Sequence record: OZ035774.1
From: Vectrevirus T147P9
Length of the DNA: 44,649 nucleotides
Reading direction: 5' to 3' (one strand)
The notes beneath the pieces were generated by a model. That model was given only the letters and a program-made list of their open reading frames with translations. It did not search any database and was not told the origin of the DNA. The first letter of the stretch is position 1. Each line of letters begins with the position of its first letter. The translations under genes and the position numbers were made by a program. Below are positions 775 through 21,530 of this stretch, one piece after another.

Positions 775-2659
775 AGAATCACAGGCAGAGGCATTAAAGC
801 GGTGGGAAAACCTTAAAGAACTACAAGACACTTTTAAATATACAGCGGAAGGTTTGCTTCTCTTTGCAGATACAGTTATCCATAACTTGATTGCAGGCAA
901 CCCTCATCTGATTCGTATGCAGGCTGATATCTTGAAGTTCCTATTCTACGGACATAAGTATCGCCTCATCGAAGCGCCTCGTGGTATCGCTAAGACAACA
1001 CTATCAGCAATCTACACGGTATTCCGTATTATCCATGAACCGCATAAGCGTATCATGGTTGTATCCCAAAACGCTAAGCGAGCAGAGGAAATCGCTGGTT
1101 GGGTGGTGAAAATCTTCCGTGGCCTAGACTTCCTTGAGTTTATGCTGCCGGATATCTACGCAGGGGACCGTGCATCCGTTAAAGCATTTGAGATTCATTA
1201 CACCCTACGTGGTAGTGATAAGTCTCCTTCTGTATCCTGTTACTCAATCGAAGCAGGTATGCAGGGTGCTCGTGCTGATATTATTCTAGCGGATGACGTA
1301 GAGTCGATGCAGAATGCTCGTACGGCAGCGGGCCGTGCCTTGCTTGAGGAACTGACTAAGGAGTTTGAATCTATCAACCAGTTTGGGGATATCATTTACC
1401 TTGGTACGCCTCAGAACGTAAACTCTATCTACAACAACCTACCTGCTCGTGGTTACTCTGTTCGTATCTGGACTGCGCGTTATCCTTCAGTAGAGCAAGA
1501 GCAATGTTATGGTGACTTCCTTGCACCTATGATTGTTCAAGATATGAAGGACAACCCAGCACTTCGCTCAGGGTACGGGTTGGATGGTAATAGTGGTGCA
1601 CCTTGTGCCCCTGAAATGTATGATGATGAAGTCCTGATTGAGAAGGAAATCTCTCAGGGTGCGGCTAAGTTCCAGCTTCAGTTCATGCTTAACACTCGCA
1701 TGATGGATGCAGACCGCTACCCACTACGCCTGAACAACCTCATCTTTACTTCGTTCGGTACAGAGGAAGTACCTGTAATGCCTACGTGGAGTAATGACTC
1801 TATTAACATCATTGGCGATGCCCCGAAGTATGGCAATAAACCTACAGACTTCATGTATAGACCTGTGGCTCGCCCGTATGAATGGGGTGCTGTTACACGC
1901 AAGATTATGTATATTGACCCTGCTGGTGGTGGTAAGAATGGGGACGAAACAGGCGTGGCTATAGTCTTTCTGCACGGCACATTCATTTACGTGTATCAGT
2001 GCTTCGGTGTGCCAGGCGGATACCGTGAATCGTCCCTGAATCGCATTGTGCAGGCCGCAAAGCAGGCGGGTGTTAAAGAGGTATTCATTGAGAAGAACTT
2101 TGGTCATGGCGCGTTTGAGGCCGTTATAAAGCCATACTTTGAACGAGAGTGGCCTGTAACTCTGGAAGAGGATTACGCCACAGGACAGAAAGAGTTGCGT
2201 ATCATTGAGACGCTGGAGCCACTCATGGCGGCACACAGGCTCATCTTTAACGCAGAGATGGTGAAATCGGACTTTGATTCGGTACAGAACTATCCGCTTG
2301 AGCTACGCATGTCCTACAGCCTTTTCAATCAAATGTCGAACATCACGATTGAGAAGAACAGCCTCCGGCACGATGACCGCTTAGACGCTCTGTATGGCGC
2401 TATACGGCAATTAACTTCTCAGATAGACTATGACGAGGTTACACGGATTAATCGCCTCAGAGCGCAGGAGATGCGCGATTACATCCATGCTATGAACACA
2501 CCTCACCTCCGCAGGGCGATGCTCTATGGAGATTATGGCACTGAGCGAAGAGTAACCAACACTTCCGTGGCTATGCAGCAAAGAGTGTACGGTCAGAATT
2601 ACAGGAGTAAATCGGCAAATCGAAATACACTTTCTGCAAGGATTTCAAGGACTTATTAA
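761..2659 (+). CDS. terminase large subunit (DNA maturase B)
   Basis: About 630-aa ORF; Walker-A-like segment (LIEAPRGIAKTT), C-terminal nuclease-like segment (YIDPAGGGKNGDETG); size and position match T7 gp19. Start taken at ATG 761 (RBS AAGGAGTGG 748-756); in-frame alternative at 722. Confidence 0.9.
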   Translation: MAKARESQAEALKRWENLKELQDTFKYTAEGLLLFADTVIHNLIAGNPHLIRMQADILKFLFYGHKYRLIEAPRGIAKTTLSAIYTVFRIIHEPHKRIMVVSQNAKRAEEIAGWVVKIFRGLDFLEFMLPDIYAGDRASVKAFEIHYTLRGSDKSPSVSCYSIEAGMQGARADIILADDVESMQNARTAAGRALLEELTKEFESINQFGDIIYLGTPQNVNSIYNNLPARGYSVRIWTARYPSVEQEQCYGDFLAPMIVQDMKDNPALRSGYGLDGNSGAPCAPEMYDDEVLIEKEISQGAAKFQLQFMLNTRMMDADRYPLRLNNLIFTSFGTEEVPVMPTWSNDSINIIGDAPKYGNKPTDFMYRPVARPYEWGAVTRKIMYIDPAGGGKNGDETGVAIVFLHGTFIYVYQCFGVPGGYRESSLNRIVQAAKQAGVKEVFIEKNFGHGAFEAVIKPYFEREWPVTLEEDYATGQKELRIIETLEPLMAAHRLIFNAEMVKSDFDSVQNYPLELRMSYSLFNQMSNITIEKNSLRHDDRLDALYGAIRQLTSQIDYDEVTRINRLRAQEMRDYIHAMNTPHLRRAMLYGDYGTERRVTNTSVAMQQRVYGQNYRSKSANRNTLSARISRTY

Positions 2660-6412: not shown

Positions 6413-8125
6413 ATGCTTCAAAGATTAAGTGCTTACTTGGTGAAGTACAAGAGTAAACTAACAGGTACTATTGAGCGCCTGCTATCTGATAAACTATCGG
6501 ATACAATAGATGTTGCGGATTTTGGAGTTAATCCATCTTCTAATGACAACAGGCAAGCCCTTCAAGCTGCATTCAATGCGGTCAGATTTCTAGGCGGAGG
6601 TACTGTATCAGTCACTAAAGCTGGCGAATATAAACTCAGTGGTACTGTTGAGATATTTGCTAATACACACTTCAAGGTTGCTAAAGGTGTAACATTTGTA
6701 CGTGACTACGAAACAGGAGATACGCTATTCAGATTATCACAAGGGCAAGCTAGTAATGTAACAGTCAGTGGAGGTGTCTATGAAGGCAATGGTCACATTA
6801 AAGGAGATACACCTTTTGTAGTATTTGCATCTACTAGTAATAATGATTTGAAGTTTGAAGGCATAACAGTTAACAATGTAGTGGACTACCACGCCATAGA
6901 TTTAGCAGATTGGAACAACGTAGTTATTCGTGATTGTAAGTTCCTAGGGTTTAAGAATACAGGCAGTCGTAACTTCTCAGAGGCTATACAGTTAGACCCA
7001 GGACTTATTACAGTAGGTCGCTATGTGCAGTCTAGTGGTTTACTGGTAGAGAATTGCTATGCTGGCCCAAACCTTGATTCTGGATTTGGCGGGTATGGTG
7101 CTCTAGTAGGAAATCATGCATCAGCTTATGGTGTTCAAGATAACAACATTAGAATCCTAAATTGCACTACAGATGGTGCACTCTTTGCAGGTGTACGTGT
7201 ATTCAACTGGAAAAACTGGATAGTACGTGGTTGCACATTTAGAAACTCTAATGCAAGAGGTGTTCATGTTACACCTGTCTCCTCTCAAACTAAACCGCAA
7301 GGAACCCGACAAGGTAGTGTTGTAGATTGTACTTTTGATGGCGTAAGAACACCAGTGCTAATTGCTGCACCATCTTGGCCTTTTACCGATATTAGTGACA
7401 TTTGGCATGACCATATTGAAATTTCTAATAATACTATGATCCTCACAGAGGATGTATCCTATGGTGTAGATGCAAGGTGGTGTAAGAATTTAATTGTAAA
7501 AGGTAATACAGGCTCTGGTGGCTTAGGGTTAATCGGTTTACGCTTTGGGACAAAATACCACATCGAAGGTAATACTTGGGAAAATGGAAGAGGTAGTGGG
7601 ATTTGGTTAGGTGAGTCTGATGCTACTACATTCATTGGTACTGGCTTATCGGGCGAAGGTATACTTAGTCGTAATATCCTCTCTAAATTAGGGCAATATG
7701 GTATTCATGTAAACTGCAAGGTTGGCGGTCTAGTGATTAAGGCTAATAATATGAAGGAAGTATCTACAGCTGAAGCAGGTAGGCACTTCATTAGCATAGA
7801 CACAGGAGCTAACAACATCCTAGTAGAAGGTAATATTGGAGTAGATGGAGAAAGCCCTAACAAGCCAAGCCTTGGTATTCGTGTTACTTCTTCTTGCTCC
7901 AATATTAAACTAATTGGCAATGATTGCTATGGTACACAGGCGCCTCAGAATAACCAAGGAGTCGGTTCTAGTACGGTGATTGTTTATGGACTAAATGGCA
8001 ATCCTACAACTTTAGGCGTAGGTGCACCTGTAGGCTCTTTAGCAACTGATATCAATGGGTCTGGTGGTGGTACATTGTACGTTAAAGAATCTGGTACATC
8101 TGCTCAAGGTTGGGTTGCAAAGTAG
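6413..8125 (+). CDS. tailspike protein 2 (pectate-lyase-superfamily-like depolymerase)
   Basis: 570 aa; AAGGAGG RBS 6402-6408; N-terminal VADFGVNPSSNDNRQALQAAFNAV...GGGTVSVTKAGEYKLSGTV resembles the pectate-lyase-3 opening of phage depolymerases, followed by Gly/Asn-rich beta-helix-like repeats. Confidence 0.7.
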   Translation: MLQRLSAYLVKYKSKLTGTIERLLSDKLSDTIDVADFGVNPSSNDNRQALQAAFNAVRFLGGGTVSVTKAGEYKLSGTVEIFANTHFKVAKGVTFVRDYETGDTLFRLSQGQASNVTVSGGVYEGNGHIKGDTPFVVFASTSNNDLKFEGITVNNVVDYHAIDLADWNNVVIRDCKFLGFKNTGSRNFSEAIQLDPGLITVGRYVQSSGLLVENCYAGPNLDSGFGGYGALVGNHASAYGVQDNNIRILNCTTDGALFAGVRVFNWKNWIVRGCTFRNSNARGVHVTPVSSQTKPQGTRQGSVVDCTFDGVRTPVLIAAPSWPFTDISDIWHDHIEISNNTMILTEDVSYGVDARWCKNLIVKGNTGSGGLGLIGLRFGTKYHIEGNTWENGRGSGIWLGESDATTFIGTGLSGEGILSRNILSKLGQYGIHVNCKVGGLVIKANNMKEVSTAEAGRHFISIDTGANNILVEGNIGVDGESPNKPSLGIRVTSSCSNIKLIGNDCYGTQAPQNNQGVGSSTVIVYGLNGNPTTLGVGAPVGSLATDINGSGGGTLYVKESGTSAQGWVAK

Positions 8126-8134
8126 TAGGATTGC

Positions 8135-8284
8135 ATGCCAATAATCAAATCAGTTAAGCAAAGTGCTGTACGCCAGAACACAGAAGAGCTTATTCAATCA
8201 GGCCGTGACCCTAAGCAAGCTTATGCCATTGCCAAGGGTGTACAACGTCGTGCCTTGAAGAAACCTTCTGCATCTTCTGCGTAA
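8135..8284 (+). CDS. hypothetical small basic protein (last gene before the genome-end region)
   Basis: 49-aa ORF MPIIKSVKQSAVRQNTEELIQSGRDPKQAYAIAKGVQRRALKKPSASSA; weak RBS; not in track. Confidence 0.3.
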   Translation: MPIIKSVKQSAVRQNTEELIQSGRDPKQAYAIAKGVQRRALKKPSASSA

Positions 8285-9115
8285 GCAGGTTAATATCTTA
8301 GTGTACACAAGGGCAGACCTAGGTTTGCTCTTAGTGTATTTACAATGGAGGTCTTATGTATATACCTATTGAAGCAATAGTAGGTTGCCTATGTTTGTTG
8401 ATAGGTTTCGTTATAGGCGTAATAGCAAAGCCTTAGTACTGTACAAGGATTAACCAAAGTCAAAATTTTGATATAGGCGTGTGTCAGCTCTCTCGCCCTC
8501 GCCCTCGCCGGGTTGTCCCCATAGGGTGGCCTGAGGGAATCCGTCTTCGACGGGCAGGGCTGATGTACTCCTTCGCTAGTACAAGGGAGGCGGAGTGAAC
8601 GCCTGGGACGGCCTAGGGAATGGCTTAGTGGTGGACAAGGTGATTACCTTAGTGAAGCCTCTTAGTGCATTCCTTAGGCCATTCAGGGCGTTTATGAGGG
8701 ATTGACAGGGTGGGTGTGGGTGGGCTATCTGTTCGTTTCGCCTAGCGGCTACACTCACTGGCTAGCTTGCGCTACGTTCACTCGCTCACGTGTACCTTAT
8801 GCTATTACTTGATGGATAGCTTAGGTTAACCTTAGTGGACTGCCTTAGTTAAAGCCTTAGTGCTTATCTTAGTATAGCTTAGTATTGTACCTTAGTAAGT
8901 CTTAGTGTCTTCTCTTAGTGATTGCACATGCAAGCATGTAAGATGCCATTAGGTCGCGGTCGGTAGACCGCTAAAGAAAGAGAACAGTAATAAGATGCAG
9001 TAGGAGGAACACCAGAAGCCTAGCCAACCTAGCCTATCCTAGCTCTGTATCTATTGCTTTTCCTTAGTCTCACATGTTAGACAACCTATCTTATTCTTAG
9101 TGATGATAACTTAGT

Positions 9116-9144
9116 GTTGACAAGATAATCTTAGTGTAATACTA
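9116..9144 (+). promoter_or_regulatory. candidate host sigma70 early promoter
   Basis: TTGACA (9116-9121), 17-bp spacer, TACTAT; lies upstream of the early genes in the expected place for host-RNAP early promoters. Sequence match only. Confidence 0.3.
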
Positions 9145-9217
9145 TGCATCACGTAGGCGGTGCTGAGGCACCTAGTAGCCAGCTAGTAAGGCATACGAAG
9201 AGACTAGCGCTTACATT

Positions 9218-9230
9218 GCTCTTTAACAAT
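9218..9230 (+). promoter_or_regulatory. RNase III site-like conserved element (copy 1)
   Basis: GCTCTTTAACAAT occurs three times in the early region; the same string is recalled from the T7 early RNase III site upstream of gene 0.3. Confidence 0.4.
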
Positions 9231-9288
9231 TTGCTTAGTGTAACCTATGTATGCCGTGGTTAATTACTTATTGAATGAGGGATTAACT

Positions 9289-9468
9289 ATGACATTAAAC
9301 AACCGTGAACTATCCGTTCTCTTCACTCTGTTGTGCTACATGATTCGTAACAACGAATTGCTTACAGACGATGAGTTAGCCTTGTATCACCGCTTTCTTA
9401 ACGAAGGTTGGACCGATACAGTTAATCAATACCGTAACATGATAGATGAGTTGAGGGAGGGTAAATAA
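9289..9468 (+). CDS. hypothetical early protein
   Basis: ORF with ATG 9289 after GAGGGA RBS; track start 9247 is an in-frame alternative; no recognisable motif. Confidence 0.45.
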   Translation: MTLNNRELSVLFTLLCYMIRNNELLTDDELALYHRFLNEGWTDTVNQYRNMIDELREGK

Positions 9469-9692
9469 TGTATCAACATGAGGTATTCTTTGAATCAGCT
9501 AGCGAAGCTATTCGCTTCCGTGATGATATGATGCAAGCTGGTGTAGGCGTTGATGTGTATCACTATTTGATAGATTACGACACTGAATATCACCGAGTTA
9601 CCTTAGTGTCTGAGTATGACAACCAAGTCATTACTGAGTATCTAGGCAGTGAAGATTACGATTACGATGAAGTAATCACGACAAATCTCTAA
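9468..9692 (+). CDS. hypothetical early protein (acidic)
   Basis: 74-aa ORF whose ATG overlaps the previous stop; acidic, Tyr/Asp-rich C-terminus. Confidence 0.5.
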   Translation: MYQHEVFFESASEAIRFRDDMMQAGVGVDVYHYLIDYDTEYHRVTLVSEYDNQVITEYLGSEDYDYDEVITTNL

Positions 9693-9761
9693 ATTAACTG
9701 TTGACAGCCACGGCATACAAGGTTACATTAAGCATCAAGACGGCGACGTCTTTAAACACCC

Positions 9762-9774
9762 GCTCTTTAACAAT
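9762..9774 (+). promoter_or_regulatory. RNase III site-like conserved element (copy 2)
   Basis: GCTCTTTAACAAT, between early ORFs. Confidence 0.4.
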
Positions 9775-9820
9775 ACGGTTTGTGTCTTGATAGGCTAACT
9801 AACTAACTAAGGTAATTATC

Positions 9821-9931
9821 ATGAAAGGGTTAATTTGTGTAGAACGTATGGTCAATGGTAAACTTGAAATATTACCACTGGAAAACCAATCTAGCTTCAA
9901 AGAGTGGTATGGCTGTTTCTCACTGATTTAA
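9821..9931 (+). CDS. hypothetical small early protein
   Basis: 36-aa ORF MKGLICVERMVNGKLEILPLENQSSFKEWYGCFSLI; weak RBS; not in track. Confidence 0.25.
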   Translation: MKGLICVERMVNGKLEILPLENQSSFKEWYGCFSLI

Positions 9932-9973
9932 GGTAAAGGCTGGCACTAGTCAGCCTATCAAGGCGCAAACCAA

Positions 9974-9986
9974 GCTCTTTAACAAT
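9974..9986 (+). promoter_or_regulatory. RNase III site-like conserved element (copy 3)
   Basis: GCTCTTTAACAAT, about 95 bp upstream of the ocr-like gene. Confidence 0.4.
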
Positions 9987-10080
9987 TTGGATGGTAGCTT
10001 CTTAGTCTGGATAGGTTAAACCTAGGGTATTCTTTTGAGTACCCTATAATGTAACCTAACTAGCTAATGAGGATTAAATA

Positions 10081-10410
10081 ATGGAACGCAATGCTAACGC
10101 TTACTACAACCTTCTGGCTGCAACTGTTGAAGCATTCAACGAGCGTATTCAGTTTGATGAGATTCGCGAAGGTGATGATTACTCTGATGCACTACATGAG
10201 GTTGTAGACAGCAATGTTCCAGTTTATTACAGCGAAATCTTTACAGTGATGGCTGCTGATGGTATTGATGTTGATTTTGAGGATGCTGGTTTGATTCCTG
10301 ACACGAAGGATGTAACCAAGATTCTACAAGCTCGCATCTATGAAGCTCTTTATAATGATGTACCAAATGACAGCGATGTAGTTTGGTGTGAAGGCGAAGA
10401 AGAGGAATAA
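10081..10410 (+). CDS. ocr: Ocr-like DNA-mimic anti-restriction protein (T7 gene 0.3 homologue)
   Basis: 109-aa very acidic protein; [45 protein letters not shown] aligns closely with remembered T7 Ocr ([45 protein letters not shown]); early-region position. Confidence 0.85.
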   Translation: [109 protein letters not shown]

Positions 10411-10518
10411 TAAGATGGAAAGGCAATATAACTTCATATTTTCAGACGGTGTGACCTTAAAATGTTCCTTGCGATTTGCGCAGATTCGTGAGGAAGTACT
10501 AGGAACTACATACAAGCT

Positions 10519-10543
10519 ATTTAGCTGACACTATAAGAGAAGG
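10519..10543 (+). promoter_or_regulatory. degenerate phage promoter-like sequence
   Basis: atttagctgacactataagagaagg; upstream half resembles SP6 ATTTAGGTGACACTATAG but the initiation region is TATAAG rather than TATAG. Confidence 0.25.
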
Positions 10544-10604
10544 CTTAACAAGGCGTTGCTACGGTAGCGCCTGATTAAACTTTCACTTACTAGAGGTTAA
10601 AATT

Positions 10605-10730
10605 ATGAAACTATCGCCATCCGCTAAAGGCCTCATTGCAGAACTTAAAGACTCTTTGAGGAATCCAATCATTTGGGCACTTATCTACATACCTTATGGT
10701 ATCTACCTATTTCACCTCATCACTGAGTAA
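10605..10730 (+). CDS. hypothetical small membrane protein
   Basis: 41-aa ORF MKLSPSAKGLIAELKDSLRNPIIWALIYIPYGIYLFHLITE with GAGGT RBS and one hydrophobic helix; not in track. Confidence 0.35.
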   Translation: MKLSPSAKGLIAELKDSLRNPIIWALIYIPYGIYLFHLITE

Positions 10731-10793
10731 ATAGCCTATAGCCTACCTGAGTGGGCTATGTGATATTTACTTACACTATATAAGGTGACTATT

Positions 10794-11717
10794 ATGACTA
10801 CTGAAAACACCCTCCTGTCTGTCCGTGAAGCTGCAACTGCTGAGATTAAGCAGCATTTGGATAATATCGGCACTTCTTACATCAAAGTTGGCGCTTGTCT
10901 GAATGAATTACGCGGTGATTTCGAAGGTCAAAAAGATTTTTTAGCTTATGTAGAATCAGAGTTCGGCATCAAGAAAGCACAATGCTACAAGCTGATGAGT
11001 GTAGCCCGTGTCTTTGAAGGAGACGAACGCTTTAAAGGTGTGGCTATGCGTGTAATGCTGGCGCTTGTTCCTTTCGCTGATGAAAATATAATCATGGAGA
11101 AGGCCGCAGAACTCGCCGCAGAGGGCAAGCTGGACACTAACGCCGTAAACGCTCTGATTGATCCTAAGAAAGAGACAAAGGCCGAGACGGTACAATCTAA
11201 GGCTGAGACAGTAAAACCGCAGGAGAACGCGACTGAGGCCGCAGAAACTATGCAAGGACATGCAACCTTTGAGGATTTCATCTTAGAGAAGGCGAAAGAG
11301 GATTTACAAAGTGTGCCGCCAGTAAGTGAGTCGGGTAACGACGAATCCGCACCGTGGGAAGAGGAAAGCAAACCGGAAGAGCCAAAGGCAGCTCCGATGG
11401 ATAACACGGCTAATACTGAGAATGCCGCTATTGCTGGTCTGCTGGCACAAATTAAAGCACTGACTGAGCAATTACAGGCAGCCAATGACCGCATCGCCTC
11501 CTTAAGTAGCGCACGCGAAAGCAAGAAGGCAGCCGCGCCTATGCTGCCGCAATTCAAATCTTCCTGCTTCTATGCTCGCTTAGGTTTAAGCGCTGAGGAG
11601 GCAACGAAGAAAACAGCAGTTAACAGGGCACGCCGCGAACTGGTTAAGCTGGGATACGGTGAAGGCCATGAGGCATGGCCCTTAATCTCTGAGGCAGTAG
11701 AAGAATTAACTAAGTAA
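10794..11717 (+). CDS. hypothetical early protein with low-complexity acidic linker
   Basis: 307-aa ORF (ATG 10794, AAGGTG RBS; track GTG 10785); about 110-aa N-terminal domain, Glu/Lys/Ala/Thr-rich linker, C-terminal domain; directly upstream of the RNAP gene. Confidence 0.6.
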   Translation: MTTENTLLSVREAATAEIKQHLDNIGTSYIKVGACLNELRGDFEGQKDFLAYVESEFGIKKAQCYKLMSVARVFEGDERFKGVAMRVMLALVPFADENIIMEKAAELAAEGKLDTNAVNALIDPKKETKAETVQSKAETVKPQENATEAAETMQGHATFEDFILEKAKEDLQSVPPVSESGNDESAPWEEESKPEEPKAAPMDNTANTENAAIAGLLAQIKALTEQLQAANDRIASLSSARESKKAAAPMLPQFKSSCFYARLGLSAEEATKKTAVNRARRELVKLGYGEGHEAWPLISEAVEELTK

Positions 11718-11780
11718 CCTTATCGGTGGCATCTTCTTAGGTGTCACCTATTAAGGTTTCTTTCACTAGGAGTACACAAG

Positions 11781-14408
11781 ATGCAAGATTTACACGCTAT
11801 TCAACTTCAACTTGAAGAAGAAATGTTTAACGGCGGTATCCGTCGCTTTGAAGCGGACCAACAACGCCAGATTGCATCCGGTAATGAATCAGACACGGCA
11901 TGGAATCGCCGCTTATTGTCCGAGTTAATCGCGCCAATGGCTGAAGGTATTCAGGCTTATAAGGAAGAGTACGAAGGCAAGCGCGGTCGTGCACCACGTG
12001 CATTGGCTTTCATTAACTGCGTAGAAAATGAAGTGGCAGCGTATATCACGATGAAGATCGTAATGGATATGCTTAACACTGATGTAACCTTGCAAGCTAT
12101 CGCTATGAATGTAGCTGACCGCATCGAAGACCAAGTGCGCTTCAGTAAACTAGAAGGCCATGCAGCTAAATATTTTGAGAAGGTCAAGAAGTCACTTAAG
12201 GCAAGTAAGACTAAATCATATCGCCATGCGCACAATGTAGCGGTCGTGGCTGAGAAGTCAGTAGCTGACCGTGACGCTGATTTCTCTCGCTGGGAAGCGT
12301 GGCCTAAAGATACCTTGCTACAAATTGGTATGACCTTGCTAGAAATACTGGAAAATAGTGTATTCTTCAACGGGCAGCCTGTTTTCATCCGCACCTTGCG
12401 TACTAATGGCGGCAAACACGGTGTTTACTACTTACAGACTAGTGAACACGTTGGCGAGTGGATAACCGCCTTCAAAGAGCACGTAGCGCAACTAAGCCCT
12501 GCATATGCACCTTGCGTTATTCCTCCGCGTCCGTGGGTTTCACCTTTCAACGGTGGGTTTCATACTGAGAAAGTAGCAAGCCGTATCCGCCTTGTTAAAG
12601 GCAACCGTGAGCACGTCCGTAAGTTAACTAAAAAGCAAATGCCAGCGGTCTATAAGGCTGTTAACGCCTTACAAGCTACTAAGTGGCAGGTTAACAAGGA
12701 AGTATTGCAGGTAGTAGAAGATGTTATTCGTCTAGACCTCGGTTATGGTGTACCTTCCTTTAAGCCGCTCATTGACCGCGAGAACAAACCAGCTAACCCT
12801 GTTCCTCTTGAGTTCCAACACCTGCGAGGCCGTGAACTGAAAGAGATGCTTACGCCAGAACAGTGGCAAGCTTTTATAAACTGGAAAGGAGAATGTACCA
12901 AGCTGTATACCGCTGAAACTAAGCGCGGAAGCAAGTCGGCGGCGACCGTTCGCATGGTTGGACAGGCCCGTAAATACAGCCAGTTTGACGCAATTTATTT
13001 TGTGTATGCACTGGACAGCCGTTCACGCGTTTATGCGCAATCTAGCACGCTCTCGCCGCAATCAAACGACTTAGGCAAGGCATTGCTCCGTTTTACCGAA
13101 GGGCAGCGTCTTGATAGCGCTGAGGCGCTTAAGTGGTTTTTGGTGAACGGGGCGAATAATTGGGGTTGGGATAAGAAAACTTTTGACGTGCGCACCGCTA
13201 ACGTGCTGGATGGCGAATTTCAAGACATGTGCCGCGATATTGCAGCCGACCCGCTGACCTTCACTCAATGGGTAAATGCTGATTCCCCTTACGGCTTCCT
13301 TGCATGGTGCTTTGAATATGCGCGTTATCTGGATGCACTGGATGAAGGCACGCAAGACCAATTCATGACGCACCTACCCGTCCATCAAGACGGTAGTTGC
13401 TCTGGTATCCAGCACTATAGCGCGATGTTACGCGATGAAGTAGGTGCGAAAGCAGTAAACCTTAAGCCTTCTGACTCCCCTCAAGATATTTATGGCGCGG
13501 TTGCGCAGGTTGTTATCCAGAAGAATTACGCCTACATGAATGCAGACGATGCAGAGACTTTCACATCTGGAAGCGTCACACTTACAGGTGCAGAACTGCG
13601 TAGCATGGCTAGTGCGTGGGATATGATAGGAATCACTCGCGGATTGACCAAAAAGCCCGTAATGACACTACCTTATGGCAGCACACGTCTAACCTGCCGT
13701 GAATCAGTGATTGATTATATCGTTGATTTGGAAGAAAAAGAGGCCCAACGAGCTATTGCGGAAGGGCGTACCGCCAATCCTGTACATCCTTTTGATAATG
13801 ACCGTAAGGACAGCCTGACACCTAGCGCAGCTTATAACTATATGACAGCTTTAATCTGGCCTTCTATTTCGGAAGTGGTTAAAGCCCCTATAGTGGCAAT
13901 GAAAATGATTCGTCAGCTTGCCCGTTTCGCAGCTAAAAGGAATGAAGGCTTAGAGTATACCTTGCCTACTGGCTTCATCTTGCAACAAAAGATAATGGCG
14001 ACAGATATGCTCCGCGTATCTACTTGCTTGATGGGAGAAATCAAGATGAGTCTACAGATTGAAACGGACGTAGTGGATGAAACGGCTATGATGGGCGCTG
14101 CTGCTCCTAACTTTGTGCATGGTCATGATGCCAGTCACCTTATCTTAACAGTCTGCGACCTTGTTGATAAAGGGATTACATCTATCGCAGTCATTCATGA
14201 TTCTTTCGGTACTCACGCAGGCCGTACAGCCGATCTACGTGATAGTCTAAGGGCAGAAATGGTGAAGATGTATCAAGGCCGTAATGCCCTGCAAAGCCTG
14301 TTAGATGAGCATGAAGAACGCTGGTTAGTAGACACCGGAATCCAAGTGCCAGAGCAAGGAGAATTTGACCTTAACGAAATCTTAGTATCTGACTATTGCT
14401 TCGCATAA
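11781..14408 (+). CDS. T7/SP6-type single-subunit DNA-directed RNA polymerase
   Basis: 875 aa; catalytic motifs [13 protein letters not shown] (motif A) and VIHDSFGTH (motif C) as in T7 RNAP; length close to SP6 RNAP. Confidence 0.95.
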
Positions 14409-14416
14409 TATTAATA

Positions 14417-14447
14417 GGCCATTCCTTCGGGAGTGGCCTTTTCTTTT
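14417..14447 (+). terminator. intrinsic terminator after the RNAP gene
   Basis: ggccattcc-TTCG-ggagtggcc hairpin (9-bp stem with one G-U, UUCG tetraloop) followed by ttttctttt. Confidence 0.65.
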
Positions 14448-14481: not shown

Positions 14482-14497
14482 GTCTCACATGTGAGAC
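14482..14497. repeat. 16-bp perfect palindrome GTCTCACATGTGAGAC (copy 1 of 6)
   Basis: Exact palindrome, 2 bp upstream of the promoter at 14500. Confidence 0.9.
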
Positions 14498-14664: not shown

Positions 14665-14680
14665 GTCTCACATGTGAGAC
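14665..14680. repeat. 16-bp perfect palindrome GTCTCACATGTGAGAC (copy 2 of 6)
   Basis: Exact copy, 5 bp upstream of the promoter-like sequence at 14686. Confidence 0.9.
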
Positions 14681-18553: not shown

Positions 18554-19033
18554 ATGAGTTCGAAACAGATCAAATGTACGAGGATTTTTACTAACTACAT
18601 CCTCTACTCTGATGGTCGAGTTCTTAACGAGAAAACCGGACAATATCTAAGAGGTTACTTAGATAAAGATGGGTATCATATTATGAATATTAAAGGGAAA
18701 CACCTTAAAGTTCATCGATTAGTTGCTATCCATTTCATACCTAACCCTAATAATTTACCTGAAGTTAACCATAAAGATCATGACCGTCTAAACAATAATG
18801 ATTGGAATCTAGAGTGGTGTACTCATCAAGATAACAATAAGCATAGCTTACATTTAGTAATAGCTTCTTGTGCTAAACGCTATGACTTTATATCACCACA
18901 AGGTGTCCATGTAGAAGTCTATAACTTACGTGAGTTTTGTAGGAATAACAACCTACAGCAATCTCATATGGTTAAGGTGGCTAAAGGTAAAGTAAGACAT
19001 CATAAAGGTTGGACTAATTATGCTAGATGTTGA
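18554..19033 (+). CDS. HNH homing endonuclease
   Basis: VHRLVAIHFIPNPNNLPEVNHKDHDRLNNNDWNLEWCTHQDNN is an HNH motif paralogous to the ORF at 331..774; immediately upstream of and overlapping the DNA polymerase start. Confidence 0.75.
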   Translation: MSSKQIKCTRIFTNYILYSDGRVLNEKTGQYLRGYLDKDGYHIMNIKGKHLKVHRLVAIHFIPNPNNLPEVNHKDHDRLNNNDWNLEWCTHQDNNKHSLHLVIASCAKRYDFISPQGVHVEVYNLREFCRNNNLQQSHMVKVAKGKVRHHKGWTNYARC

Positions 19034-21530
19034 TTGGAAAGAATTTGGAAAGAATCGCATACTTGTCATGGATGCTGAAAGTAAAGGTTTGCTTGATGCC
19101 ATACGCTATGGTCATCGTGAAGATGTGCACATCATTTGCTGCATGGACTTGCTCACCACTGAGGAGTTCCTATTCTTCGACCCGTATGAGATGCGTGACC
19201 CTGAAGCAAGAGAACGCCTAAAAGAATGGGAAGGCCATCAAGATGGAACATTGGTTGACGGTGTTAACTTCCTTAAGCACTGCGAAGCCATCGTCTCACA
19301 GAACTTCCTAGGGTACGACGGCCTTCTATTTGAGAAAGCATTCCCTGATATATGGAAAGGCTTTAATTATACAGAGAAGCGTGGCAAGGGCAGGCTCCGT
19401 GCCGACCTGTGTCCTGTGCGAGTCATGGACACGCTGGTGATGAGCCGCCTGTTAAACCCTGATAGACGCCTCCCTCCGCAAGCATACGCCAAAGGCATGG
19501 GTAACGTCGCCCCTCACTCAATTGAGGCGCACGGCATCCGTATAGGCCGTTATAAGCCGGAGAATGAGGACTGGTCTAAGCTAACTGACCACATGGTTCA
19601 CCGTGTACGGGAGGACGTGGCGATTGGTCGTGACTTGTTCCTCTGGCTCTTTAACGGGGAATGGATGGAGCACAAACGCCGTGGCGTGAATAAACGCACT
19701 GGCCTAGGTATTGAGACAGCCTTCCACATGGAGTCCATTGTGGCGCTGGAGATGAGCCGTCAGGCCGAGCGCGGGTTCCGTCTGGACATCGACAAAGCTT
19801 TGGCCCGATGCGAAGAATTGGACGCTAAGATTGACGAGACAGTCGCAGCGTTCCGCCCTCACATGCCTATGCGTATCAAGTCTAAACCTTTTAAACCGGA
19901 AGAAAAGAATGAAGTATGCCAACGCGCAAATGAGTATGGAGCTAGCAACAATATACCTACTGTCCTTGACCCCTCACACTTTCTTCATGCCGAGAGACGA
20001 GGAGATCGCAAGACAGTATGGAGTGTCACTACTAAGTCTGGTGATTGGTCGGCTAGTGTCAAGAAAGACTTTCCTCACCTTAGAGGAAGCCGTAATGACA
20101 CGCCAAGCATCAAGTGGATTGGCGCTTACTCGCCTGTTACTTTCGAAGAGATTCCCTTGGGTAACAGGGATACAGTTAAGCAAGTACTCTATGATTATGG
20201 ATGGAAAGGTGTTGAATTTAACGATACCGAGCAAGCGCATCTCGATGAGCACGGAGTGTTACCCAAACCTTGGAGTGGTAAGATAAATGAAAAGTCCCTT
20301 ACTTTATGGCAAGAAAGAGCCGCACGTGAAGGTAAAACAGTCCCTGATTGGTGCTTGGGTATCGCTGCATGGTACATACTCGTATCCCGTCGTGGTCAGA
20401 TACTCAACCGTGGTGACGTTGAAGCCTTCAACGAGAAGGGAACGTGGCCCTCGCAGGCTGGTGTACGAAAGTGTCGCGGCCTTGTACCTGTAGCATTCAA
20501 CAAGGAGCTAGGAATCAATGCGCAGCAATACTACGAGAGGTACGGATGTTGGCCTACGTCTGACAAAGATGACGGAGAGTGGCGTGTGCCAGGCAATGCT
20601 GTTACTATTGGCACTAATACGTTCCGTATGCGTCATCGTAATATTGTTAATATCCCTTCCCGTGGATTGTATCCTCTGCGTGATTTATTCATAGCTAGCA
20701 AGGGTAAAATGATACTCGGATGTGATGGAGCGGGGCTTGAGCTTCGCATCTTAGCCCATTTCATGGGTGATCCTGAGTATATTGATATTGTCTTGAATGG
20801 CGATATTCACTCGCACAACCAAGCGAAGGCTGGATTGCCCTTACGTGACACTGCGAAAACATTTATCTACGCTTTTCTCTACGGTTCTGGCATACCAAAC
20901 CTTGCTGCGGTATGTGGCATGACTGAAGCACAGATGAAAGAATGTGTCGCTCGCTTTGAAGTAGAGCTACCTCACTTAGCTAAACTTAAGGAGGGAGTGG
21001 AATCTGCTGCTTCACAATTTGGGTACATGCACGCGGTAGATGGGCGCTGGGGTCGTGTACGCGTTAGCAATGGTGAGATTAAGATTCACACTTGTCTAAA
21101 CGTATTACTTCAGATGACTGGCTCCCTCACTATGAAGTACTCAAAAGTGAAAGCACTGGCTACCATGCGTAAAGAGGGCGTAGCCCTTGATGCAAATGGT
21201 AATCCAGCAATGCTTGTTGACTACCATGATGAATGGCAGATGGAAGTACCTGAAGACGAAGTGTTAGAAATTCGCTACTCTATTCCTTCCTCTGAATGGA
21301 AAGAAGAAGAGAAAAGACAGTATCGTGACAGTGATGGACGCATGTGGTCTGCACCTAAGGTTGTGGAAGGTAATCCTAAAGAAGACGAGACGATCACAGT
21401 ACGTCGTCGTTACCATCGTGCAGGTGAGATTTTAGCTGAATCTATTACATGGGCTGGAGAATACCTCAAGCTACGTATTCGAATGGATGGTGAATATATG
21501 CTTGGATATTCATGGGCTGAAACGCACTAA
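19020..21530 (+). CDS. DNA polymerase (family A, T7 gp5-like)
   Basis: 836 aa; motif A DGAGLELRILAHF, motif B RDTAKTFIYAFLYGSG, motif C HDEWQMEV; N-terminal 3'-5' exonuclease-like region. Confidence 0.9.
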   Translation: MLDVDWKEFGKNRILVMDAESKGLLDAIRYGHREDVHIICCMDLLTTEEFLFFDPYEMRDPEARERLKEWEGHQDGTLVDGVNFLKHCEAIVSQNFLGYDGLLFEKAFPDIWKGFNYTEKRGKGRLRADLCPVRVMDTLVMSRLLNPDRRLPPQAYAKGMGNVAPHSIEAHGIRIGRYKPENEDWSKLTDHMVHRVREDVAIGRDLFLWLFNGEWMEHKRRGVNKRTGLGIETAFHMESIVALEMSRQAERGFRLDIDKALARCEELDAKIDETVAAFRPHMPMRIKSKPFKPEEKNEVCQRANEYGASNNIPTVLDPSHFLHAERRGDRKTVWSVTTKSGDWSASVKKDFPHLRGSRNDTPSIKWIGAYSPVTFEEIPLGNRDTVKQVLYDYGWKGVEFNDTEQAHLDEHGVLPKPWSGKINEKSLTLWQERAAREGKTVPDWCLGIAAWYILVSRRGQILNRGDVEAFNEKGTWPSQAGVRKCRGLVPVAFNKELGINAQQYYERYGCWPTSDKDDGEWRVPGNAVTIGTNTFRMRHRNIVNIPSRGLYPLRDLFIASKGKMILGCDGAGLELRILAHFMGDPEYIDIVLNGDIHSHNQAKAGLPLRDTAKTFIYAFLYGSGIPNLAAVCGMTEAQMKECVARFEVELPHLAKLKEGVESAASQFGYMHAVDGRWGRVRVSNGEIKIHTCLNVLLQMTGSLTMKYSKVKALATMRKEGVALDANGNPAMLVDYHDEWQMEVPEDEVLEIRYSIPSSEWKEEEKRQYRDSDGRMWSAPKVVEGNPKEDETITVRRRYHRAGEILAESITWAGEYLKLRIRMDGEYMLGYSWAETH

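Follow-up and report, generated by a model that had tools for sequence, protein, structure and literature searches.

How much of the DNA around an anti-restriction gene is itself given over to counter-defence? The question is raised by positions 9289..11717 of a 44,649-nucleotide (nt) stretch of Vectrevirus T147P9 (OZ035774.1), here called the window, to which all coordinates refer unless another genome is named. A first-pass annotation of the window recognised an Ocr-like product at 10081..10410 and proposed that the small uncharacterised genes around it form a cluster for anti-defence or host takeover. The answer reached here is that the block is probably an early operon, transcribed by the host polymerase and punctuated by RNA signals, in which Ocr and a set of exchangeable cassettes stand beside the conserved genes gp4 and gp6. 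Ocr is the sole gene of the block with a supported anti-defence role. The region is an ordinary, already sequenced and partly annotated early block of a known phage genus. The analysis adds the domain assignment of gp6, the status of orf36 as a gene, a map of the exchangeable slots, and a description of the boxA and hairpin punctuation.

The window is a circular permutation of a Vectrevirus (K1-5-like) genome. The 3.7 kb around the region are 92-96% identical at the nucleotide level, over 80-98% of their length, to K1-5, K1E, 6949, T147P1, and other Vectrevirus genomes. Positions 9289..11717 comprise the early operon minus the RNA polymerase gene and lie between sigma70-like promoters near the left end and that gene, which bears out the early position originally proposed. 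With somewhat better than even confidence, they are the host-transcribed class I (early) region of a K1-5/SP6-type E. coli phage and would be the first DNA to enter the cell. The genes and landmarks are these:

6413..8125, tailspike gene
~8493, physical left end, where the K1-5 record begins
~9100, start of the early region
9289..9468, + strand, gp1, 59 amino acids (aa), helical and acidic, homologue of SP6 gp3, preceded by the Shine-Dalgarno motif GAGGGA
9468..9692, + strand, gp2, 74 aa, isoelectric point (pI) 4.05, 17 Asp/Glu, acidic-aromatic tail
9821..9931, + strand, orf36, 36 aa (MKGLICVERMVNGKLEILPLENQSSFKEWYGCFSLI), unannotated in K1-5, 6949, AAPEc6, and VEc3 and called in a few records
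10081..10410, + strand, Ocr (gp3), 109 aa, DNA-mimic inhibitor of type I restriction-modification, with the role taken from its family
10415..10528, + strand, gp4, 37 aa, always directly downstream of ocr
10605..10730, + strand, gp5 slot, 41-aa protein with a C-terminal hydrophobic segment (IIWALIYIPYGIYLFHLI)
10794..11717, + strand, gp6, 307 aa from ATG (310 aa from the GTG at 10785)
11781..14408, phage RNA polymerase gene, downstream of gp6
14416..14439, intrinsic terminator directly after the RNA polymerase gene

The gene order is that of the early regions of K1-5, K1E, and SP6 (genes 1-6 of K1-5, NC_008152; genes 1-7 of SP6). gp1, gp2, Ocr, gp4, and gp6 correspond one-to-one to K1-5 gp1, gp2, gp3, gp4, and gp6, while Ocr, gp4, and gp6 correspond to SP6 gp5, gp53, and gp7. 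The gp5 slot holds a 41-aa variant here and the 62-aa gp5 in K1-5, and gp6 has 307 aa here against 294 in K1-5, with a 13-residue insertion in its linker. orf36 also exists in the K1-5-like reference records, where it carries no annotation.

By its sequence, the product of 10081..10410 is Ocr, as first proposed. It matches the Pfam family ocr, PF08684 (E=9.3e-31; 106.7 bits against a cut-off of 25; profile positions 5-97 of 101), and phrog_2568, 'ocr-like anti-restriction' (6e-51). Its residues 7-102 match the T7 Ocr structure 1S7Z (E=2.6e-27), and it is 50% identical to T7 gp0.3 over 98 residues. The protein is strongly acidic, with 28 Asp/Glu against 6 Lys/Arg and a pI of 4.05. Ocr proteins inhibit type I restriction-modification and also BREX, and they are a trigger of PARIS; by family, this one would block type I restriction-modification as a DNA mimic. 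It shares the position of Ocr of T7 gene 0.3, downstream of early promoters, boxA, and a hairpin. T7 Ocr is longer (117 against 109 aa), the N-termini differ, and a short poly-Glu tail is present here. Two Ocr alleles, about 60% identical, circulate at the ocr slot in Vectrevirus, and the other allele is the more T7-like. Phages of the K1-5/K1E/SP6 type serve as therapeutic agents against capsulated E. coli and Salmonella, and Ocr is the only early gene with an assigned function.

Six open reading frames (ORFs) flank Ocr, namely gp1, gp2, orf36, gp4, gp5, and gp6, where the first-pass annotation had counted at least five. Each has a Shine-Dalgarno-like motif 6-10 nt upstream. Every feature reported earlier was found where it had been placed, the pair of very small ORFs included: phages 6949 and VEc3 have 10605..10730 annotated, and 9821..9931 is a conserved gene. 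The lack of homology ascribed to the block was overstated, because every flanking ORF has homologues in related phages and gp6 remotely resembles DUF3102 and J domains. The absence of recognisable function stood for the most part: gp1, gp2, orf36, gp4, gp5, and gp6 belong to no family of known function in Pfam, PHROGs, or NCBIfam, and NCBIfam and Pfam returned nothing for gp1, gp2, orf36, gp4, gp5, or the alternative cassettes described below. It did not stand for gp6, which has recognisable domains. The proposal would have fallen had all the early ORFs proved to be conserved T7-group genes of known function; they are conserved, with their functions unassigned, so that it does not fall on this count.

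Twelve early regions, when compared, separate exchangeable slots from conserved genes. In these sequences the gp1/gp2 position, the orf36 position, the Ocr allele, and the membrane proteins of the gp5 slot are exchangeable, and gp4 and gp6 are conserved. The gp1/gp2 slot is filled either by gp1 and gp2 or by an SP6-like trio, while the gp1-type protein itself is conserved (phrog_9275 at 2.4e-40; 69-100% identical in relatives, 69% in SP6). gp2 is weakly related to SP6 gp4. A single-sequence model of gp2 gave a generic ferredoxin-like fold with CutA/PII matches and is not taken as functional evidence. gp4 (phrog_11746 at 5.7e-30) occurs in 133 records at 67-100% identity, in phages of Escherichia, Klebsiella, Salmonella, Proteus, and Citrobacter, and it lies within a few nt of ocr whichever Ocr allele precedes it. 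The division between slots and core genes indicates where host-range and counter-defence determinants are to be sought.

The gp5 slot has conserved flanks and a middle that is swapped in most relatives, with at least five unrelated inserts. The 41-aa version is found in 12 of the 68 matching records, all phages, at 97.6-100% identity. Protein-level selection on it is not measurable because all 12 copies are nearly identical. The alternatives, which are K1-5 gp5, AAPEc6 gp05, 101118B1_060, and SP6 gp6, each carry a transmembrane or signal-like segment. A match of gp5 to DUF5976 is weak and under threshold (E=0.012).

orf36 is a real protein-coding gene, as judged by comparative sequence evidence. 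Its amino-acid sequence is 100% identical in 33 Vectrevirus records, and the three nt variants among 10 aligned phages are all synonymous third-position changes. A full-length homologue is present in the T3-like Enterobacter phage EV136_1 (Kayfunavirus), at 75% aa and 68% nt identity, just upstream of a S-adenosylmethionine (SAM) hydrolase anti-restriction gene. Relative to that homologue there are 12 synonymous and 10 nonsynonymous codon differences, distributed 10/6/19 over the three codon positions. A further homologue of 40 aa, 49% identical, is annotated among the early genes of Ralstonia phage P-PSG-11. The homologues have in common the pattern VNG-x4-LPL-x2-Q-x3-(Y/F)-x-EW-x-GCF, and variants in the protein collection change at variable positions only, and conservatively. 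K1E-type phages carry other small ORFs in place of orf36 and retain both flanks.

Two other accounts of the small genes have to be weighed against this evidence. The conservation of orf36 and gp5 could reflect RNA or regulatory sequence only, with neither ORF a gene: the whole of 9693..10080 is highly conserved, non-ORF parts included, orf36 is enclosed by a conserved long-range stem, and the near-identity of the gp5 copies leaves selection on the protein unmeasurable. This is very improbable, since the orf36 frame stays intact at 68% nt identity in a phage of another subfamily with an excess of third-position changes, the Ralstonia phage carries its annotated homologue, and each of the inserts that take the place of gp5 is an ORF that has a ribosome-binding site and encodes a hydrophobic segment. 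At the other extreme, the whole block could be an anti-defence island in which each ORF, gp6 included, inhibits a specific immune system. The leading region of Autographiviridae genomes is variable and rich in anti-defence genes, so that the neighbourhood of Ocr falls in a known hot spot (PMC12455610); close relatives exchange the contents of these slots, the equivalent slot of other phages holds a SAM hydrolase or a methyltransferase, and the strong acidity of gp2 and several neighbours recalls DNA mimics. Nevertheless, the island is unlikely. gp6 and gp4 persist in genera whose hosts differ greatly, a distribution not expected of specific inhibitors of patchily distributed defences, the gp2 model shows only a generic ferredoxin-like fold, and searches of Pfam, PHROGs, and NCBIfam linked none of the ORFs but Ocr to an established anti-defence or host-shutoff family. 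Because only Ocr has such a match, anti-defence or takeover roles for the other genes amount to guilt by position. The view that this region is the likeliest place for new anti-defence or shutoff functions thus keeps its footing in Ocr, in the early variable location, and in the swappable slots, but it does not extend to gp6 and gp4, which are conserved core genes. By position only, exchangeable cassettes at fixed slots between conserved RNA signals would be plausible host-specific counter-defence or takeover factors.

The RNA signals that separate the cassettes are as follows:

9078..9107, weaker sigma70-like promoter
9117..9145, + strand, sigma70-like early promoter TTGACA-17-TACTAT, 10 of 12 consensus matches, ~600 nt inside the K1-5 left end
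9218..9233, + strand, boxA-1 with spacer, GCTCTTTAACAATTTG
9701..9729, + strand, second sigma70-like promoter TTGACA-17-TACATT, 10 of 12 consensus matches
9762..9774, + strand, boxA-2, GCTCTTTAACAAT, invariant in 10 relatives
9777..9801, + strand, 5' arm of a long-range stem, pairing with 9947..9971 (25 nt, 88% complementary)
9947..9971, + strand, 3' arm of the long-range stem, bracketing the orf36 cassette with 9777..9801
9974..9989, + strand, boxA-3 with spacer, GCTCTTTAACAATTTG
9998..10072, + strand, conserved 29-bp hairpin upstream of ocr, candidate RNase III site, with its 3' arm abutting the ocr ribosome-binding site
10519..10541, + strand, phage-RNA-polymerase promoter-like site, ATTTAGCTGACACTATAAGAGAA, with A, not G, at the predicted +1
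10526..10599, + strand, long conserved hairpin between gp4 and the gp5 slot, candidate RNase III site
11718..11756, + strand, hairpin between gp6 and the RNA polymerase gene, candidate processing site (z = -4.2)

The two sigma70-like promoters would drive early transcription, as judged by consensus matches only. The promoter at 9701..9729 does not vary among 10 relatives, including those with a different gene upstream. The 13-nt boxA motif GCTCTTTAACAAT has three exact copies, at 9218, 9762, and 9974 and on the + strand only, two of which extend to GCTCTTTAACAATTTG; copies 1 and 2 are preceded, at a distance of 33-73 nt, by promoter-like sites. An rrn-type boxA reads GCUCUUUA(ACAA) on the transcript and lies downstream of a promoter, and the copies in the window do both. 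GCTCTTTAACAATTTG is identical over 15 nt to the boxA-spacer of E. coli rrnG, ugcucuuuaacaauuua (PMC2724277, Table 1). The early leaders of all K1-5-like loci, SP6, Proteus PM116, Vibrio VEN, Enterobacter EV136_1, and T7 carry the same 13-mer, in every case on the coding strand, so that boxA-bearing early leaders span at least three subfamilies of Autographiviridae. In T7 it lies at 813..825, between promoter A3 and gene 0.3; in SP6 it is at locus positions 656 and 926, and in other comparison loci at 545 and 1360 (L016), 682 (L013), and 714 (L017).

This distribution suggests Nus-factor antitermination in early transcription by the host polymerase. The three boxA motifs probably load Nus factors and would make transcription Rho-resistant over the long untranslated leaders. 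No boxB was identified in this early region, and the literature searched contained nothing on boxA in T7-like phages. The presence of boxA from T7 to Vibrio phages suggests a borrowing of host ribosomal antitermination, which would affect the speed of genome entry and expression. As a separate observation, many short CTTAGT(G/A) and CCTTAGT repeats occupy 8640..9250, between the terminal-repeat region and the early promoters. Some abut -35 boxes (AACTTAGTGTTGACA), and they are comparable to the short arrays beside the T7 terminal repeats.

The long-range stem around orf36 pairs at 24 of 25 positions as RNA, with two G-U wobbles, and because of these G-U pairs it is better formed as + strand RNA. 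It is paired in all 10 sequences examined, with two one-sided compatible changes and no double changes, and K1E-type phages keep both arms while other ORFs fill the loop. The arrangement resembles the E. coli rrn leader, in which boxA is followed by an RNase III stem flanking 16S rRNA: here boxA is followed by the 25-nt stem around the cassette, the boxA copies lie downstream of a promoter, and boxA with spacer matches exactly over 15 nt. Unlike the rrn leader, these signals flank protein-coding cassettes in a phage, and the parts given to Nus factors and RNase III are putative.

The hairpin at 9998..10072 is more stable than shuffled sequences (z = -4.5) and has two compensatory pairs and a consensus structure in eight phages. 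It follows boxA, as R0.3, at the position reported by Dunn and Studier (1983), does in T7. The hairpin at 10526..10599 (z = -5.7) has seven pairs with compensatory changes across K1-5-like phages and SP6. An Rfam match to a microRNA family at 10528..10598, on both strands, is a hairpin-shape artefact of the palindrome and was set aside. Stability, conservation, intergenic position, and covariation are the features of T7-group RNase III sites and were found here. Together with the orf36 stem, the conserved hairpins probably direct RNase III cutting of the early transcript into separate messages.

The promoter-like site at 10519..10541 was scored with a weight matrix built from 12 phage promoter sites of the window, in which true sites score 18-38 bits when left out. 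It scores 23.0 bits, against 7.5 for the next best background site, and SP6 shares its core as well as the A at +1. A second candidate at about 10764 was rejected (4.2 bits, with a 1-nt deletion). The 10519 site may add transcription of gp5, gp6, and the polymerase gene by the phage polymerase, and if it is active it would give positive feedback on polymerase expression.

gp6 is the largest of the flanking genes, and its distribution marks it as a core early gene and not a variable accessory or anti-defence gene, because it is widely conserved and linked to the RNA polymerase gene. It occurs in 212 phage records, in Molineuxvirinae of Escherichia, Salmonella, Klebsiella, Proteus, Erwinia, and Pectobacterium and in Colwellvirinae of Vibrio and Pseudomonas. 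In both subfamilies it adjoins the RNA polymerase gene upstream, directly or one small gene away. A full-database HMMER search with gp6 yielded 129 representative clusters, most with a common two-domain layout. The layout predicted for the protein of the window is:

residues ~8-125 (nt 10815..11168), DUF3102/ParB-KorB-like helix-turn-helix (HTH) domain
residues 126-204, acidic disordered linker, 20 Asp/Glu against 8 Lys/Arg, with the motif APWEEE at nt 11349..11366
residues 205-244, coiled coil
nt 11544..11555, LPQF motif, almost invariant in the family, preceding the J-like domain
residues 255-307 (nt 11556..11714), J-like domain lacking HPD

The first-pass annotation was right about an acidic linker in the 307-aa protein; residues 126-204 are predicted to be disordered. 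The AlphaFold2 model consists of an N domain (pLDDT 84-91) and a C domain (pLDDT 91-94) joined by this segment and a 40-residue helix, and its input alignment is shallow (24 sequences, most of them more than 75% identical). The DUF3102 profile matches 23 of 49 gp6 family members at E<=1, with a best value of 1.1e-6, and falls below the reporting threshold for gp6 of the window; DUF3102 is itself uncharacterised, and the literature searched contained no paper on it. The structural neighbours of gp6 in BFVD are members of its own family and DUF3102 proteins only. The modelled N domain resembles the HTH fold of KorB/ParB, and in this shallow-alignment model it also matches the Raf1 alpha domain. 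The N-domain sequence profile gave no significant match in the PDB, a single-sequence PDB search with gp6 gave nothing significant, and no plasmid homologue of the N domain was found. In contrast to ParB/Spo0J, KorB, and SopB, gp6 has no N-terminal ParB/Srx CTP-binding domain, no ParA/IncC-type partition partner is encoded in the region, and its sequence shows no relation to ParB or KorB proteins of solved structure. In profile searches for distant relatives, a diverse alignment returned almost exclusively near-identical Vectrevirus proteins, and a profile of distant members only returned four proteins, which left a shallow alignment for the structure prediction.

The C domain, by its sequence profile, is clearly homologous to J domains, matching about 36 J domains in the PDB and aligning to DnaJ at 94% probability in hhalign; some family members also match Pfam DnaJ. 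The domain is C-terminal in gp6 and is preceded by LPQF, a motif outside J domains proper. Its helix II retains a basic (A/S)(Y/F)RxLxK pattern. The HPD loop reads GYGEGH in gp6 and NPD, TPE, KPE, or TAA (YTAA) elsewhere in the family, and HPD is kept in one of 129 family representatives, the distant member P0243. Because HPD is missing, gp6 is J-like and by definition not a functional J-domain protein or co-chaperone; unlike DnaJ, CbpA, and Rki, it is not expected to trigger the DnaK ATPase canonically. The linker carries an acidic-aromatic motif in 22 of 51 parsed members (APWEEE here; PPFDTG, VPFDMG, and IPFDVD elsewhere). GenBank labels on gp6 homologues ('protein kinase', 'endolysin/andolysin', and 'late transcription factor VLTF-4') are supported by no profile. 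In phage vB_EcoP_R (3767..4625 of its locus) gp6 is annotated as two ORFs of 138 and 140 aa, split in the linker; the split stems either from a frameshift or a sequencing error, or from the DNA-binding and J-like halves being naturally separate there.

The preferred reading of gp6 is that it acts in host takeover or regulation as a DNA-tethered dimer. It would most likely dimerise through its coiled coil, the ParB/KorB-like HTH would place it on DNA, and the acidic linker motif and the J-like domain would engage a host protein. More plausibly than activating a chaperone, the J-like domain would bind or block a partner, as in Tim16/Pam16, because Rki, an early J-domain protein of phage RB43 that acts on DnaK, requires HPD (PMC3486835). 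gp6 shares its position with T7 gp0.7, since each is the last large early gene before the RNA polymerase gene, and because it is the positional counterpart of gp0.7, host takeover is more likely than strain-specific anti-defence. In T7 gp0.7 an effector, the kinase, is coupled to a DNA-binding shut-off domain, and the protein serves host takeover and counters defences broadly (PMC13645617). gp6 has no sequence or fold similarity to gp0.7 and no kinase domain, and no protein like T7 gp0.7 or gp2 was recognised in the block after the RNA polymerase gene. gp6 is a testable candidate for the missing takeover function in phages without the T7 kinase and gp2, and it would be a rare viral J-like domain without HPD.

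Two rival roles draw on the same domains. gp6 might modulate the Hsp70 system, its J-like domain binding DnaK, or the J domain of DnaJ or CbpA, without stimulating the ATPase, in the way that Tim16 holds back Tim14; this would retune chaperone availability or the heat-shock response, as Rki does in RB43, and the N domain would serve localisation or dimerisation only. The J-domain homology, the retained helix II pattern, and the one distant member with HPD speak for this role. So does Rki, which shows that an early J protein of a phage can act on DnaK. The role is nevertheless doubtful: T7-like phages have no known dependence on DnaK, and the HPD essential for functional Hsp70 contact (PMC3486835) is gone from essentially the whole gp6 family. 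gp6 might instead be a phage-directed DNA-binding regulator or organiser without a direct host target, for example one that binds the CTTAGT repeats of the left end or represses early promoters for the early-to-middle switch. This possibility fits the KorB/ParB-like fold of the model (KorB is a repressor), the dimer suggested by the coiled coil, the core status of the gene and its link to the polymerase gene, and the many CTTAGTG-type repeats near the early promoters. It is also unlikely, as no operator in the form of an inverted repeat was identified, the short terminal repeats of T7 are similar yet its early region has no gp6 homologue, and the conserved linker motif and J-like domain indicate a protein partner.

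Several considerations weigh against the preferred reading of gp6 and of the operon as a whole. The ParB/KorB likeness comes from a structure predicted from a shallow alignment, to which Raf1 alpha also fits, and DNA binding by gp6 is itself a prediction. A J-like domain without HPD has no predictable partner, and the analogy with gp0.7 is one of position and not of homology. The variability of the cassettes could be neutral mosaicism instead of selection by host defences. SP6-type polymerases disfavour A at +1, the base at the 10519 site. Promoters, boxA function, and RNase III cleavage are all read from the DNA alone, and the roles of genes other than Ocr from sequence and position.

A bolder combination of the DNA-tethered dimer with the spread of orf36 is quite unlikely as a whole. 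In it, gp6 would stand for a hitherto undescribed class of host-takeover proteins that SP6-like and Vibrio/Pseudomonas Autographiviridae share as core early products, namely a dimer on DNA that captures a host factor and replaces the role of the unrelated gp0.7 kinase. The degenerate J domain and the internal acidic P[FW]D motif, which resembles the C-terminal tip of SSB (DDDIPF), would be the capture modules, and the host factor might be DnaK/DnaJ or an enzyme that interacts with SSB. orf36, for its part, would be a micro-protein that has been overlooked despite its wide spread and that occurs in company with anti-restriction genes. The literature searched contained no paper on the functions of K1-5/SP6 early genes.

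Outside the early block, the window holds a few further elements. An identical 16-nt palindrome, GTCTCACATGTGAGAC, occurs at 14482..14497 and 14665..14680, just past the early terminator, with each copy immediately 5' of a phage promoter (14500 and 14686). The right end of the genome, after the tailspike gene, encodes two small conserved ORFs, 8135..8284 (49 aa, phrog_2423) and 8356..8436 (26 aa, hydrophobic, phrog_37692). In the replication block, an HNH endonuclease gene at 18554..19033 lies directly upstream of a large ORF at 19020..21530 and is likely a mobile homing element.

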